Shown here piece by piece: positions 21,001 through 27,000 of a DNA stretch of 64,000 nucleotides. Numbering within the stretch: position 1 is the stretch's first letter; each line of letters starts with the position of its first letter. This DNA is from Syntrophales bacterium (GTDB lineage Bacteria > Desulfobacterota > Syntrophia > Syntrophales > UBA6807). Position numbers: made by a program. The stretch is taken from NCBI GenBank assembly GCA_040767195.1, contig JAXGPA010000001.1, positions 768,001 through 832,000 of the forward strand, given 5' to 3'.

Positions 21001-24000
21001 CGGGGCCGAGGACGACGAAATCCGTACGGCCGGCCGTTTCGAGAATCGAATTCAGGCTGTCCGGGGAAAGGGACCCCGATTCCGTTTCCCCCTGGGGGTG
21101 AAAGACGATCTCGCTTCCTTTCCCGGCGATGACGGGAATGACCGAACGGGGGGCGGCGAGCCGGGCATAGCCGCCGCCGGCCCGGAGAAAGGCCTTGGCG
21201 GACAGAAGGGGGGCCCCGTAATAACCGGAGGCTCCTGCAACGAAAAGGGCCTCGCCGAAATCCCCCTTGTGGCCCGCGTCCTTCCTCGGGGGCAGGGGCA
21301 CCGGGCCGTTCACCGCCACGGGAATCCTCTCGTCCCCGTAGAGAGGCGGCGGGAAGGATATGTGGGATACAAATAACTTGCCGCAGGACGCCGCGCCCGG
21401 GTAGAGCAGGTTCCCCCTCTTGGGAAGCCCGAAGGTCACCGTCTGACGGGCCCGCACGGCCGCCCCCAGGATCTCTCCCGTGTCCCCGCTCACCCCGGAG
21501 GGAATGTCGACGCTCGTGACGGGCTTTCCCGACCGGTTCACGGCCTCGATGATTTCCCGGTGAAGCCCCGTCACCTCCCGGGTGAGCCCCGTCCCGAAGA
21601 GGGCGTCGACGATCCGATCACAGGAAGCGAGCGACGACGGCAACCTTTTCGTCGATACCTGATTCTCCAGACGGAGAGGCAGGCGCTGCAGCATCCCGTA
21701 ATTCACCGCGGCCGCCCCCGTGAGTTTTTCCGGGTTTCCCGGAAAGATCACGGTGACGTCGGCACCCCGGGACAACAGGAGCCTGGCGACAGCGAAGCCG
21801 TCCCCGCCGTTATTCCCCGTCCCGCACACGATGACGACCCGTTCCCCCGCAAGGGGAGCGGTTTTTTCCATCACGGAAACGACCGCCAGGGCCGCGTTTT
21901 CCATGAGCAGGAGCTCCGGTATGCCGAAACGTTCCGTCGCTTCCCGGTCCAGCCTCCGCATTTCCTCTACCGTGGCAACCTTCATGACGCCCCCCGTCAG
22001 GCATCCCGCGCCGTTTCCGGCACCGCGGAAGCGACCGTTTCCCCGAAGGGCCCGGCAGACTGATCGTCGAGCCTGGAAAAGGCCAGCTCCACCAGGCTTT
22101 CGCCGTCAATCACGGACCGGTCCTCGATGGATGCGACTCCGATCCGCAGAAGAAAAGGGAGCGACCCATCGTCCGCCGCCGGAAGGCGGCACAAAATTAC
22201 CTCCGCCGCGCGGCGGGCCGTTTCCCGGGCCGCCATCTCCTCCCGGTAGGGGAGGCAGAGGACATAACCGTTCTCCCGACATCGGAAGAGGCTGTCCTCC
22301 CGCCCCATGGAAGCGCCGATTGCCCCGGCCATCAGGACGGCGAAGGCGTCGGCCTTTTCCGGGCCCTGACGTTCTTTCACGTCATCATAGTTTTCATGAC
22401 AGAAGGCGACCACGGAAAGGGGAAAACCCCGGGTCCGGGAGGAGGCGACCTGCCTGTCCAGGAATACCTTCAATTCCGAACCATTCGAAAGCCCTGTCAG
22501 ATCGTCCCGGGTAACCCGTTTCCGGAGATTTTCCTGGGTGAGGACGTTGGACAGGGATATGGAAATGATGAGGGACAACTGGGAAAGGAAAAACGTGTCC
22601 ATGTCCGGCTGAAAGCGGGAGTCCGAGTAGTCCCCCAGATTGAGGCCACCGATGATTTTCTCGCGAAAGAAGAGAGGGCACACGGCCATGGATTTGACCA
22701 TGCATTTCTGGTGATGGGGAAGAAGCCGGTAGTAGGCCTTCAGGTTCTCGTTCACCAGTATCGGCAGCCCTTTTTCGTCCATGAGGGCCGAAAAATCACT
22801 CCGGGGGAGGACATTGAGACGTTCCTTGAGGAGCGGGGAGGCTTCCAGTGACTCCCACGGGAACCGGTCCGTTTCCTCCTCGATGACGGAAATCCAGACA
22901 TGGGGGATGGAAAATTTTTCTTCCACAGCGGTGAGAAGACGCTCGAAAAGGTCCCGAAAGGTGGACACGGTGAGGATTTCCATTTCCATCTCAAAGAATT
23001 TCCTCAAGATTTCCTCATTTGTCCGCACATGATGAAAGATTTCCTCCAAACGAAACAGGGTGGCCATCCCTACATCCCCTCCTTGGTCTTGTTTCGAAAA
23101 TGCCCTCAAGATCCCATCGTCCAGAGCGTCCCCTCCGGCGTGTCCTGGACATGGACTCCCAGGCCCTCCAGGGCTTCACGAATCCGGTCCGACTCGGACC
23201 ATCGTCCCGCCGCCCGGGCCTCTTCCCTTTTTTTGAGAAGCTTTTCCGCCTCTTCGGGGAGACGTTTCGGCTCGAAATCCATGACGGCGATGACCGAATC
23301 GACGGTTCTCAATTCCTTGAACACGGCGTCCCGCTCCCGGTCGTTCAGGAGGTCTTTCGACAGGGGGCCGTTCACCTTCCGGACAAATTCAAACAGGGCG
23401 GCCAGGGCGCTCGATATGTTGAAGTCGTCGTCCATGGCGTCCTCAAAACCGTGGTGAAGATCGTAGACGTACTGGTCCACATCGGGACACCCCGCTCCCG
23501 CTCGTGCCCGGAGCAGTCTCTGGAGAAAACCGTTCAGCCGCCGGACGGTGTTCCGGGCCGTGTCGAGGGCCCCGAAGGAAAAATTCAGGGGCTTCCGGTA
23601 GTGAGACCCGAGAAGGAAATAACGGATGTCCCGACCCTCGTAACCTTTTGCTTCCAGTTCCTCGAGGGTGCAGGCGTTTTCGAGAGACCGCGACATTTTC
23701 TTCCCGTCCAGCATGACCAGTTCCGTGTTGATCCAGTAGTTGGCCAGGGGGCCCCCGGTGGCCGCCTTTCCGATGGCCAGGACGTTCTCACAGTGCGGGA
23801 AAAGGATGTCCGTTCCGCTGGCATGAATGTCGAAGCGTTCCCCCAGGTGTTCCAGGGCCATGGCGGCGCATTCGAGATGCCACCCTGGGCGGACGTTCCC
23901 CCAGCGGGTCTTGTGGTAGATGCCCCTTTTAAGCTCCGCCAGGTTGGACCTTTTAAGAAGGGTGAAATCCACGGGACTGTCCTTCTCGTAGTCATCGCCC

Positions 24001-27000
24001 TCCACGGTCGACTTCCGGAGCATGTTCTTCAGATCGATGTTGGAGAGGACCCCGTAATCGTCGAGCTTGGAGATGTCGAAATAGACGGACCGTAGTTTTT
24101 CGTAGGCAAATCCCTTCTCCACCAGTTTTTCCGCCAGGCGGACCATGGCGTCCACATGCTCGCTCGCCCGGGGATATTTCGTTTCGGTCCGCATGTTGAG
24201 ATTCTCCAGGTCTTCCCGGAATCTTCCCACGTAGCGTTCCGTCAATTCCTTCAGATCGGCGTTTTCCCGGTCCGCCCGCCGGATGGACCGGTCCGCCAGG
24301 TCGATGATATTGGAGGCCACGGAGACATGGAAGCCCTTGAGTTCGAGGTAACGGGCCACCAGGTCCGCCACGACGAACCGCCGGTATGTGCCCAGGTGGG
24401 GGGTGTCATGAACGGTCGGGCCGCAGGCGTGGATGAGCACCCGGTCGGGGCGGAGGGGCCGGAAGAAATCCTTTTTCCGGGTCAGGGTGTTGAATATTTT
24501 CAAAGTGGTCTCTCCCTGGTCGGCGAACAGCTCCGTACTCAGATAGCGCTCCCCCGAGTCGGGAAAAATGACGACGATGAGACCATCCTCCATTTCCCTG
24601 GCCTTTTCCAGGGCCACATGCATGGCGGCGCCGGAACTCATACCCGCCAGGATTCCCTCCTCCCGGGCAAGCCGCCGGGCCATGGCGAAGGCGTCCTCGT
24701 CGTGGATGTTCACGATCTCATCAAGCCGCGACCGGTCAAAGATGCCCGGCTGGTAGGACTCCTTCATGTTCTTGAGACCCTGGATCCTGTGACGGAGATA
24801 GGGCTCCACGCCCACGACCCGGATGTCCTTCCCGTACTCTTTCAGCCGGCGGGCGCATCCCATGGCCGTTCCCGATGTTCCCAGGGTGGCGACCACCATG
24901 GTCACCCGCCCTTCCGTCTGACGCCAGATTTCTTCCGCTGTCCCGTGGTAGTGGGCGTTTATGTTATCCTCGTTGTTGAACTGATCGGGAATGAAATAGG
25001 TTCCCGGATGCTCCCGGTACAGCGTGTAGGCGTACTCGATGGCCCCGTCCGTCCCGAGGGCCGCCGGGGTGAAGTGAAGTTCCGCCCCCATGGCCTTCAG
25101 GATTTTTTTCCGCTCCTCGCTCACCCCTTCCGACATGGCGAGAATCAGCCTGTACCCCTTAACCGCCGACACGAGAGCGAGGCCGATGCCCGTGTTTCCG
25201 CTCGTGGCCTCGAGAATCGTTCTGTCCTTCGTCAGCTCCCCCCGTTTTTCCGCCGCTTCGATCATGAAGAGGGCCGTCCGGTCCTTGATGGACCCGCCGG
25301 GGTTGTGACATTCAAGCTTGGCGAAAATCCTGACATTACCGCCCGGGTTGAGGCGCCTGATTTCCACAAGGGGGGTATTCCCCACCATATCGAGAATGTT
25401 TTCGTAAACGCCTTTCATCCACCCTCACCGACAAAAAGGGGGCCTTTCCGGAATCCCCCTCGATTTTTTCATCCGCTCAGCTGTCTAACTTGAGGACCGG
25501 CACCTTGATAAACTGGACACCCTCCTCCTTCAAGGTTTCCTCTTCCTCTTTCGACGTGGTGCCTCGAATATTGCGGCGGTCTTCCTCGCCCCTGTGAATT
25601 TTAAGGGCCACCTGGGCGAAGCGGTCTCCCACATCGTCAAAATTGTTCTCCAAAAATTCGTGGAGCTTCTTCAAGGCCAGACGGGGGCTCATTTCATCTG
25701 GAGGCGCCTTTTTCTCCCCTTCGGAACGGGAGCGGCTGATGACGGAAACGGAGGACGGAAGGCGCTCGATCTCGGACCCGCCGCAGACGGGACAGGTGAT
25801 GAGACGCGCCCGCAACTGGGCCTCGAAAGCGGCGCTGTCCTGGAACCACGCTTCAAAGCGATGCTGTTTACGGCACTGAAGATCATATATGATCACGGAA
25901 CCACACTCTCCCCATGATCCTGAAAGGTCATCTTAACATAGTAATAATTTTACCATGCTCTGGAACGGATCACAACGGCTACTTCCGTGCCGGGCACAAG
26001 GGCACGGGGCCGTTCCCGAAAAAGCTCCCGCGGCCCTGCGGCGGAGCGGTCACTCCAAAAAAACGGTGGACATTTATCCAATAATTATATAATGAAGAAC
26101 GGAGTCGGGATGTGGCCCAGTCTGGTAGGGCACTGCGTTCGGGACGCAGGGGTCGCGCGTTCGAATCGCGCCATCCCGACCATTTTAATTAACCGCCCAT
26201 AACCCCGGCCATGCGGAAAACGGGAAGATAAAGGGCCACGATCATCCCTCCCACAAGCCCCCCGAGAACAACCATCATCACCGGCTCGAGCAGCGAAGTC
26301 ATGGCGTCGGCGGCGGCGTCCACCTCCTGGTCGTAAAAATCGGCGATCTTGTCCAGCATGGCGTCGAGGGTTCCCGTGCTTTCGCCCACACCGATCATCT
26401 GAACGACCATGGAGGGAAAGACTTTCGATGAGGCGAGGGTTTCGGCAATGGGCTTGCCCTCGGTGACCCTCTTCCGTGTTTCCACGAGAACATTCTCCAC
26501 GGCCTTGTTGCCGGAAACCCTCCCGACGATCTCGAGGCCCTCCAGGATGGGAACGCCGCTGGAAACGAGGGTGGACAGGGTCCTGGAAAACCGGGCCACC
26601 GCCACTTTTCTGAAAAGTGTCCCAAAAACGGGAAGTTTGAGAAGGATCCTGTCAACGCCAAGCCGTCCCCGTTCCGTTTTGTAAAAGCGCCCGAAACCCA
26701 GGACGGAAAGAACGAGGAACAGGACGCCGTAAAGAAAGTTGCCCTGGACGAATTCGCTGGCTTCCATGAGAAGCCGGGTCGGGGCGGGCAGGGCGGAACC
26801 CATCTGGCGAAAAAGGTCGTCGAAGACGGGCACGACCCTCCACAGGAGAAGCGCGATCACCGCCGAGGATATGAGAAGGACGGAAGCGGGGTAGACCAGG
26901 GCGCCCCTCAATTTCCTCTTCAACTGGACGGTTTTCTCCAGGTGGCCCGCGAGGCGGTTCAGGATCACGTCGAGGACACCGCCCGCTTCGCCGGCAGCGG

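Follow-up and report, generated by a model that had tools for sequence, protein, structure and literature searches.

A widespread fusion of a cysteine synthase to a worn cysteinyl-tRNA synthetase in Syntrophales, a candidate tRNA-Cys-responsive enzyme

In the 64,000-nucleotide stretch of Syntrophales bacterium DNA analysed here (the window), one minus-strand gene joins a cysteine synthase to a cysteinyl-tRNA synthetase (CysRS)-like protein in a single chain (Table 1). Its open reading frame runs through 770 codons without an internal stop. Pfam places PALP at residues 9-287 (E 2e-72), together with tRNA-synt_1e at 319-622, DALR_2 and CysS_C, and the protein passes the NCBIfam cut-offs of both TIGR01136 (365.3 bits; cut-off 344.15) and TIGR00435 (384.7 bits; cut-off 340), the latter over the full length of the CysRS half. 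Among the homologous matches listed, 120/120 are 760-793 aa long with both domains present, which upholds the fusion reported in a preliminary description of this locus. An assembly artefact was ruled out by these two-domain homologues, the genomes of relatives and contigs from four public RNA-library runs (two studies) that span the junction, contigs that bear on the assembly and not on transcription, strand or level. In 10 loci the gene is split and the two halves are still adjacent. The AlphaFold pTM of the fusion protein rose from 0.63 to 0.78 once the alignment was made diverse, which by our arithmetic requires that the halves be placed against each other in the model; a mutual-information search for contacts between them returned phylogenetic noise (Neff 96).

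Table 1. Features of the fusion gene and its surroundings, in window coordinates
Feature	Position	Strand	Remarks
GAF + weak GGDEF gene, downstream	21997..23109	-	not conserved as neighbour
Fusion gene P0001, CysM-type cysteine synthase + pseudo-CysRS	23106..25418	-	770 aa; ORF, Pfam, NCBIfam, homologues
Full-length CysRS-like domain, aa 306-767	23118..24503	-	Rossmann fold, CP1, helical and C-terminal anticodon-binding domains
Anticodon-reading helix R731, R735, W740, D744, R747	23178..23228	-	corresponds to E. coli R423, R427, W432, D436, R439
KMSRS for KMSKS, aa 574-578	23685..23699	-	motif comparison
Remodelled zinc/cysteine pocket FPHCENV, aa 540-546	23781..23801	-	H234 kept, H235->C, E238->V; C28 (C332) and C209 (C517) kept
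Family-specific CP1 segment, aa 484-499	23922..23969	-	R490, L493, L496, K497, G499; short helical insertion not in ordinary CysRS
Altered HIGH region HLGT-Y-RR, aa 341-347	24378..24398	-	R347 family-specific, at E. coli T43 position
Short linker, aa 299-305	24504..24524	-	in split relatives, one frame stops and the next starts here
PLP domain, aa 9-287	24558..25394	-	K45, T72-S-G-N-T76 loop, Q146, G180-T-x-G-T184, S261, D287 conserved
Terminator-like hairpin + T run just upstream of start codon	25433..25460	-	not listed by consensus scan
DUF1178 zinc-ribbon gene	25477..25896	-	directly upstream of fusion gene

The cysteine synthase-CysRS fusion is a real gene and is widespread in syntrophic and sulfate-reducing bacteria. 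It occurs in 50 of the 61 genomes of the order, so the earlier statement that it is conserved through Syntrophales holds, and in about 94 of 251 genomes of the phylum. Cultured carriers are Syntrophus aciditrophicus, S. gentianae and Desulfocarbo indianensis. The DUF1178 gene lies directly upstream in 79/79 Syntrophales-type loci, and 80 more distant loci yielded no copy; no neighbour conserved across the phylum was found, and the synteny is lineage-specific.

Judged by sequence, the PLP half belongs to the CysM-type synthases and is intact. The PLP lysine, substrate loop and phosphate cup are all present, and the catalytic residues are kept in 64/64 fused copies. The CysK insertion loop is absent (83 residues align with 83 of CysM free of gaps), the short CysM-type loop reads IQGLKNM, and its K216 stands at the position of E. 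coli R210, a CysM pattern kept in 64/64 copies; the score against the CysM model is 363 bits, below the cut-off of 394. No other cysteine-synthase match exists in this genome (98.8% complete), and a search of it returned no CysE match at E<=1e-10, in agreement with the earlier claims of a sole cysteine synthase and no serine acetyltransferase. Neither MetX nor MetA was found in the genome, where PF01053 matches were weak and partial, and we rejected both an acetylserine supply from MetX/MetA and reverse transsulfuration on the grounds that these genes were not found. SepRS and SepCysS were not found in the genome either. Given that none of CysE, MetX, MetA, SepRS and SepCysS was found, O-phosphoserine is the likely candidate substrate of the PLP half, and the presence of SerA is also in its favour. 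The residues that mark O-phosphoserine sulfhydrylases are a Tyr after the conserved Gln and an Arg in the GLRN loop; the fusion has K216 in the Arg column and F147 in place of the Tyr. In favour of O-phosphoserine, K216 aligns with Arg of the mec-cysO-cysM operon enzymes (58/58); on the other side, E. coli CysM is also basic there and F147 is Phe where the Nocardioides CysO-type enzymes have Tyr (58/58). Phe at this position is tied to O-acetylserine preference in the accessible part of PMC12800425. A sulfur-carrier partner was rejected: ThiF adjoins the pair in only 4/243 loci, and one query each found no CysO or JAB-like gene in the 243 loci or in the genome. Across 50 carriers, 17 of the 18 with a serine acetyltransferase have an extra stand-alone synthase and 29 of the 32 without one have none, counts that overstate the association given that related genomes are not independent.

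The CysRS half was compared in 64 diverse fused copies (25 Syntrophales, 39 others) with 133 ordinary CysRS from outside the clade. The second Lys of KMSKS (K269) is found in 0/64 fused copies versus 131/133 ordinary CysRS, HxG[H/N] in 10/64 versus 131/133, G226 in 6/64 versus 132/133 and Q241 in 0/64 versus 131/133. Of the residues C28, C209, H234 and E238, which we take to be the zinc ligands of E. coli CysRS, the first three are kept together in 56/64 fused copies, and Glu at E238 is found in 0/25 Syntrophales copies, 28/39 other fused copies and 133/133 ordinary CysRS. The residues that presumably read the anticodon in the E. coli enzyme have fared otherwise: R423, R427, D436 and R439 are all present in 64/64 fused versus 130/133 ordinary sequences, and W, F or Y occupies W432 in 65/65 members of the fused set that includes P0134. 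We found no paper on the roles of individual E. coli CysRS residues in the open-access literature. A new Arg at R347 marks 63/64 fused copies and 0/133 ordinary CysRS. H206, F232-P233-H234, N237 and R346 are invariant in the family, CP1 is strongly conserved, and the anticodon helix carries five conserved surface positions within a domain that is otherwise the least conserved part of the protein (mean conservation 0.47-0.50). The erosion is lineage-specific: HxG and KMS[K/R] are both missing from 19 of the 39 copies outside Syntrophales, whereas in Syntrophales the ATP motifs are mildly changed (HxG 25/25, KMS[K/R] 24/25), so residual adenylation is possible in this lineage. The CysRS half is under purifying selection, with a dN/dS of 0.14 against 0.125 in the PLP half for a single sequence pair; this and the invariant positions rule out a decaying pseudogene half. 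These residues suggest a worn catalytic site with the tRNA-gripping residues kept, which makes a sensor of tRNA-Cys or cysteine more likely than a loader. The CysRS half had been described as complete; it is full-length, but its active site is not complete.

The same genome encodes a canonical CysRS of 492 aa on contig C6, with HVGH, FPHHENE and KMSKS, confirming that a separate bacterial-type enzyme exists. Such a separate CysRS is present in 61/61 relatives and 93/94 carriers of the phylum. In the remaining carrier (95% complete, 210 contigs) the fused copy reads HLGEWRR and no second CysRS was seen; the other four genomes of its family have two CysRS each, and the missing one is likely an assembly gap. 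In 4/4 small genomes that have no CysRS other than the cysM-linked one, its motifs are intact. Charging of tRNA-Cys is probably left to the separate canonical enzyme.

The fused CysRS halves form one branch (SH-aLRT 99) in a quick tree that omitted 20 thinned rows and a third CysRS type and held no named Methanosarcina sequence. A recent duplication of the resident CysRS was ruled out, with 34% identity between the two and their grouping rejected (AU p 0.004). The preliminary description called this half archaeal-type. Its 40% identity to Methanosarcina stands, but is not distinctive, with ordinary CysRS of related Syntrophales matching Methanosarcina at 36-42%, and a grouping with archaeal CysRS is absent from the best tree. 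The best-scoring intact relatives within the set are archaeal-labelled MAG proteins, and grouping with them is not rejected (AU p 0.18).

We propose, with a probability of roughly 0.6, that the fusion couples a cysteine synthase to a regulatory module that binds tRNA-Cys and derives from a CysRS no longer used in translation. This sensor reading draws on the loss of ATP motifs, the constant retention of anticodon residues, the conserved CP1 and the three zinc ligands kept in most copies. The PLP half would condense O-phosphoserine, supplied by the SerA pathway, with either sulfide or thiosulfate, and no serine acetyltransferase would be required. The CysRS half would bind tRNA-Cys and read cysteine on its 3' end, or it would bind free cysteine through what remains of the zinc site, and the signal would reach the synthase through a fixed interface, turning it on with uncharged tRNA-Cys and off with ample cysteine. 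CysE normally provides feedback on cysteine synthesis, and this switch would take its place. A more specific version is tentative, its odds falling somewhat short of even: a class I pseudo-synthetase would recognise tRNA-Cys by its GCA anticodon and its empty 3' end, and would then activate an O-phosphoserine-dependent synthase allosterically. A regulatory paralogue had been raised earlier as a caveat; the motif census and the separate CysRS make it the better reading. The conserved fusion, the sole synthase, the lack of a CysE match and the second CysRS are upheld, and so is the underlying idea that cysteine synthesis and tRNA-Cys are functionally linked.

The link was originally cast as channelling: cysteine or a persulfide would pass directly from the PLP site to a second, active CysRS, which would then charge tRNA-Cys. 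The full-length TIGR00435 match, the retention of C28, C209, H234, W205 and all anticodon residues, and the nearly invariant HxG and KMSRS of Syntrophales would fit a working synthetase, as would the one carrier with no other CysRS seen. That claim is nevertheless hard to maintain with K269 gone from every fused copy, E238 from every Syntrophales copy and T68 changed to I/V there, with members of the same clade devoid of both ATP motifs, and with a separate CysRS almost always at hand; K73 and K269, presumably the lysines of the persulfide-synthase motif, are Arg in the fusion. We consider channelling quite improbable and, at most, a property of the Syntrophales branch. Fusions and gene pairs that arose independently and have an intact CysRS imply that coupling is selected somewhere, and the separate fusions with intact motifs in Nanoarchaeota/Nanobdellota are a natural comparison and better ground for that question. 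Chemistry independent of ATP is unlikely as well, even with its variants taken jointly: a dead synthetase would hold charged tRNA-Cys, whose amino acid would be converted or removed by the PLP half or within the remodelled pocket itself. The outcome could be tRNA-dependent synthesis of cysteine, trans-editing where tRNA-Cys is mischarged, or use of Cys-tRNA as a sulfur donor. Lost ATP motifs beside invariant H206, F232-P233-H234, N237, R346, CP1 and anticodon residues suit a protein that binds the 3' end of an aminoacylated tRNA, the better model shows order in the entry loop of the PLP half (208-224), and SelA in the genome makes selenocysteine mischarging conceivable. On the other side, neither SepRS nor SepCysS turned up in the genome, and the only tRNA-Cys detected has a canonical form and a short variable loop. 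The loop for binding a free substrate carboxylate is still present in the PLP half (PMC12800425, accessible part), and CysRS needs no editing according to the portion of PMC7373986 available.

There are two further readings. The CysRS half could sense free cysteine alone or be a structural subunit, with tRNA-binding residues kept for folding. HisZ, a HisRS paralogue and regulatory subunit of the ATP phosphoribosyltransferase HisG (PMC9437257), is a precedent, and the three zinc ligands and the lack of a CysE to carry feedback agree with it. However, the five conserved surface positions stand amid the least conserved domain, and the 8/64 copies in which one or more of these zinc ligands is missing still keep the anticodon residues; we give this reading little credence. 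Autoregulation, with the CysRS half binding a tRNA-like mRNA leader, has hardly any chance: a terminator-like hairpin does lie upstream in 21/79 Syntrophales-type loci versus 0.8 in shuffles, but anticodon-mimic hairpins are at chance level (3/92 leaders versus 3.5 in shuffles) and no conserved leader is visible.

If the tRNA-Cys sensor is correct, it would account for cysteine synthesis and its control without serine acetyltransferase in many syntrophs and sulfate reducers. A metabolic enzyme would read tRNA charging directly, not through attenuation, T-boxes or ppGpp, and to our knowledge no bacterial example of this exists. Such sensing would be amino-acid-specific and akin to that of GCN2, which senses deacylated tRNA (PMC7373986), in over a third of sampled Desulfobacterota. 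The fusion is annotated as an ordinary cysteine--tRNA ligase. We found it described nowhere in the open-access literature, although supplements, such as Fig. S14 of PMC5389517, could show it. The table of synthetase paralogues in a 2022 review (PMC9437257, accessible part) has only CysRS* and MshC for CysRS; the fusion would be a third, abundant kind.

Among known systems, the CysRS half resembles canonical E. coli CysRS (1LI5/1U0B) in its predicted whole-length fold (TM 0.86 to 1U0B) and in C28, C209, H234, W205 and the anticodon residues; it differs by H40->T, T43->R, T68->I, G226->S, H235->C, E238->V, Q241->I, K269->R and the CP1 insertion, and is never the sole CysRS in 61 relatives. The PLP half shares with CysM (E. 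coli/Salmonella OASS-B; actinobacterial mec-cysO-cysM) the short loop, the basic residue at R210 and all PLP residues, but has Lys for Arg at 216, Phe147 for Tyr, a score below the CysM cut-off and a pseudo-CysRS attached. SepRS-SepCysS, the tRNA-dependent route to cysteine (PMC5424206 and PMC8762117, in the parts available), likewise links cysteine synthesis to tRNA-Cys, but its proteins are unrelated and the fusion genome has a canonical CysRS; with neither SepRS nor SepCysS found and the free-carboxylate loop kept, a bacterial counterpart of the methanogen pathway, as first suggested, is no longer a fitting description. CysRS* and MshC are also second CysRS paralogues, CysRS* from the same phylum. 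MshC differs in being an ATP-dependent ligase. CysRS* of Desulfobacterales has no anticodon domain and sits with selC*/selB* (PMC5389517, accessible part), whereas the fusion shows the reverse pattern, with the anticodon domain kept and the ATP site worn; membership in that system was rejected, with no selC* or selB* neighbours found and no selC* tRNA found in the genome. HisZ is similar: it too is a synthetase paralogue that accompanies an ordinary synthetase and is tied to an enzyme that makes its own amino acid; it has no adenylation activity, and loss of the ATP motifs in the fusion is clear in many relatives and partial in its own lineage. The fusion is class I and HisZ class II, the fusion is tied to the last step and HisZ to the first, and, where HisZ has no anticodon-binding domain, the fusion has kept a complete one; regulation by the fusion is a proposal. 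GCN2, with its HisRS-like sensing domain, also fuses a synthetase-like domain to an effector enzyme as a sensor of uncharged tRNA, the role proposed here; GCN2 is a eukaryotic class II kinase and not tRNA-specific, whereas the effector of the fusion would be a metabolic enzyme.

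The fusion is real as observed, given that it forms an uninterrupted, stop-free reading frame, scores above the cut-offs of both NCBIfam models (TIGR01136 and TIGR00435) and has a junction bridged by contigs from four RNA-library runs. All 120 homologues among the matches listed are full-length fusions. The preliminary description was also right that this is the only cysteine synthase, that serine acetyltransferase is not found and that a second, bacterial cysteinyl-tRNA synthetase (CysRS) exists: the 98.8%-complete genome holds no other synthase match and no CysE match, and a canonical CysRS lies on its contig C6. 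The GAF and weak GGDEF gene that overlaps the fusion's stop is not a conserved neighbor; its translation has no visible GGDEF signature, and it probably has no cyclase activity.

Features of the fusion, its surroundings and related loci (G, genome, G000 being the fusion's own; C, contig; L, locus; P, protein)
Feature	Position	Strand	Remark
CysM-CysRS fusion	window 23106-25418	-	770 aa
PALP domain	aa 9-287 of fusion		Pfam
CysRS domains	aa 306-767 of fusion		
GAF and weak GGDEF gene	window 21997-23109	-	
Terminator-like hairpin	window 25433-25460	-	between DUF1178 and fusion
DUF1178 zinc-ribbon gene	window 25477-25896	-	directly upstream of fusion in 79/79 Syntrophales-type loci
Methanogen-type homocysteine enzyme (PF01837)	G000:C6:204612-205685		
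SelA	G000:C6:327254-328612		
ThiF-family gene	L159-L162:5435-6175		3' of split cysM/pseudo-cysS pair
Independent CysM-CysRS fusions and adjacent cysM-cysS pairs	P0134; L247:2884-5295; L246, L249, L251-L254, L258		intact HIGN/HVGN and KMSKS

Aligned to E. coli CysRS (1LI5, whose numbering is used), the CysRS half is changed at H40->T, T43->R, T68->I, G226->S, H235->C, E238->V, Q241->I and K269->R and retains C28, C209, H234, W205 and R423/R427/W432/D436/R439. We take the last five to be the anticodon set of the E. coli enzyme, and C28, C209, H234 and E238 to be its zinc-ligand positions. Among 64 fused copies (at most 70% mutual identity) and 133 outside CysRS, the second Lys of KMSKS was found in none of the fused copies versus 131 outside, HxG[H/N] in 10 versus 131 and G226 in 6 versus 132; anticodon R/R/D/R was found in all 64 versus 130, and R347 (fusion numbering) in 63 versus none. 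Three zinc ligands are kept in 56/64 fused copies, and all share the anticodon helix and a strongly conserved CP1 bearing a family-specific insert; the available text of PMC5389517 assigns acceptor-stem recognition to CP1. At the sequence level, the pattern of decay is lineage-dependent: Syntrophales copies have HxG in 25/25, KMS[K/R] in 24/25 and E238 in 0/25, and the other copies have E238 in 28/39 and have lost both ATP motifs in 19/39. In a quick tree, this family's CysRS-like domain forms one branch (SH-aLRT 99), and the dN/dS of 0.14 from one pair shows purifying selection on the half. Given the worn ATP motifs, the kept anticodon residues and CP1, the single branch and the purifying selection, the CysRS half bears the signature of a pseudo-enzyme maintained for putative tRNA-Cys binding. 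The claim that it is a complete synthetase holds in part: it passes TIGR00435 but departs from a canonical CysRS in three tests of its sequence. A sister grouping with the resident CysRS was ruled out (AU p 0.004).

Our best reading is a predicted tRNA-Cys-binding regulatory pseudo-CysRS that controls an intact synthase (probability roughly 0.6); uncharged tRNA-Cys would turn the synthase on and/or cysteine or Cys-tRNA-Cys would turn it off. The preliminary description had proposed that an active fused synthetase channels fresh cysteine onto tRNA-Cys. Residual adenylation is possible in Syntrophales-lineage copies, but channeling is unlikely for the gene in the window, given that the second KMSKS Lys is missing throughout and that all 61 Syntrophales genomes have a separate CysRS. 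ATP-free chemistry on charged tRNA-Cys is doubtful; SepRS and SepCysS were both not found in the fusion's own genome, where the one tRNA-Cys found is canonical. We consider it improbable that the CysRS half senses free cysteine only, and very improbable that it is an mRNA autoregulator; no anticodon-mimic leader was found.

All 64 fused copies keep K45, the S-G-N-T loop, Q146, the G-T-x-G-T cup, S261, D287 and K216 in their PLP half. Residues 181-263 align gap-free with CysM enzymes, whereas alignment to CysK requires a seven-residue insertion; K216 occupies the E. coli R210 position and is aligned with the Arg of Nocardioides mec-cysO-cysM enzymes (58/58). The fusion's own genome encodes SerA and a methanogen-type homocysteine enzyme; neither MetX nor MetA was found in it, PF01053 matches being weak and partial, and its ARAGORN listing includes no tRNA-Sec. 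Over 50 carriers and 11 non-carriers, among which kin are not independent, carriers with serine acetyltransferase also had a stand-alone synthase in 17/18 cases, often adjoining, carriers lacking it had no other synthase in 29/32, and 8/11 non-carriers had the acetyltransferase. Given this co-occurrence and the genome content, the fusion seems independent of CysE. Phe at the F147 position has been linked to acetylserine preference (PMC12800425 section 8). The fusion's own Phe there counts against O-phosphoserine, as does the available text of PMC9855970, in which it is no substrate for the CysM of C. jejuni; O-phosphoserine is therefore a likely, predicted substrate of the fusion and not a firmer one. 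Cysteine synthase, CysE and fusion were all not found in genome G010 (1.8 Mb, 100% complete), a member of the order that may be auxotrophic for cysteine.

AlphaFold gave pTM 0.63 with the PLP entry loop (208-224) disordered from a Syntrophales-only alignment, and pTM 0.78 and pLDDT 90.8 with the loop ordered from a diverse one. Because independent halves would be expected, by arithmetic, at about 0.60-0.63, the model probably positions one half against the other. No conserved neighbor was found across the phylum; DUF1178, in a yicC-gmk-(rpoZ)-pyrF-rlmB-pilC-tRNA-Pro context, was not found next to 80 more distant copies. The hairpin also occurs in 21/79 relatives versus 0.8 in shuffles, and the scant promoter room after it in the own genome makes read-through control possible. 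The ThiF-family gene in four closely related split loci hints at a sulfur-carrier route there.

The claimed conservation through Syntrophales is borne out by 50/61 genomes (one copy cut by a contig end), and the family is phylum-wide: the CysRS half was matched (E<=1e-100) in 94 of 251 evenly sampled genomes, a lower bound, with frames of >=763 aa in 92/94. A second cysS match was present in 93/94 and was not found in G202 (95% complete, 210 contigs). At ten loci, whose labels are Myxococcales, Binatia, Spirochaetales or deltaproteobacteria, the domain of this pseudo branch is its own gene directly 3' of cysM, the two being separated by a true stop codon and a fresh start codon; another CysRS was found in the one split-form genome examined. 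Frames are broken within the fusion in L141 (G292:C15), L226 and L055, near the junction in the first two, through sequence error or incipient splitting.

The label "archaeal-type" may or may not fit the CysRS half. The 40% Methanosarcina match says little, given that relatives' ordinary CysRS reach 36-42%, and the available text of PMC8762117 regards methanogen CysRS as a bacterial acquisition; however, the best-scoring intact relatives in the compared set are one Nanobdellota and one Nanoarchaeota protein, and a tree that groups the CysRS half with these two is not rejected (AU p 0.18). Each of the two is in turn a CysM-CysRS fusion whose motifs are intact and which falls outside the pseudo branch. 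Records labelled Woesearchaeota, Bathyarchaeia, Bdellovibrionales and Moranbacteria contain intact cysM-cysS pairs. The linked CysRS was the only one found in 4/4 small genomes examined with an intact fusion or pair, and these fusions and pairs are better channeling candidates. A cysM-cysS pair may have arrived beside the resident CysRS and then fused, and its synthetase, freed from charging, could have turned into a sensor. Protein P0214 (711 aa), with a hexapeptide-repeat (CysE-like) N-terminus and an intact CysRS, is another cysteine synthesis/charging fusion. A third CysRS-like type of ~405-430 aa in Syntrophales (L105-L111; G050, G032, G021, G044, G025, G036, G015) keeps HIGN and KMSKS, has WHIEC->WNIQD and FPHHENE->xRHHDY[T/S], lacks the C-terminal anticodon domain and sits on a long branch (SH-aLRT 100). 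It lies near nifU-nifS-cysE-like genes in G036 and G015, the G015 copy being broken, and is possibly a ligase for another substrate.

We found no description of the fusion in the open-access main texts searched, nor mention of it in the available portions of PMC5424206 or PMC8762117; the family is apparently undescribed and apparently mis-annotated. In its predicted working, it would come closest to HisZ (available portion of PMC9437257) or the GCN2 tRNA sensor (PMC7373986, likewise in part); the fusion is a member of neither, and its pattern is the reverse of that described for CysRS* in the available text of PMC5389517.
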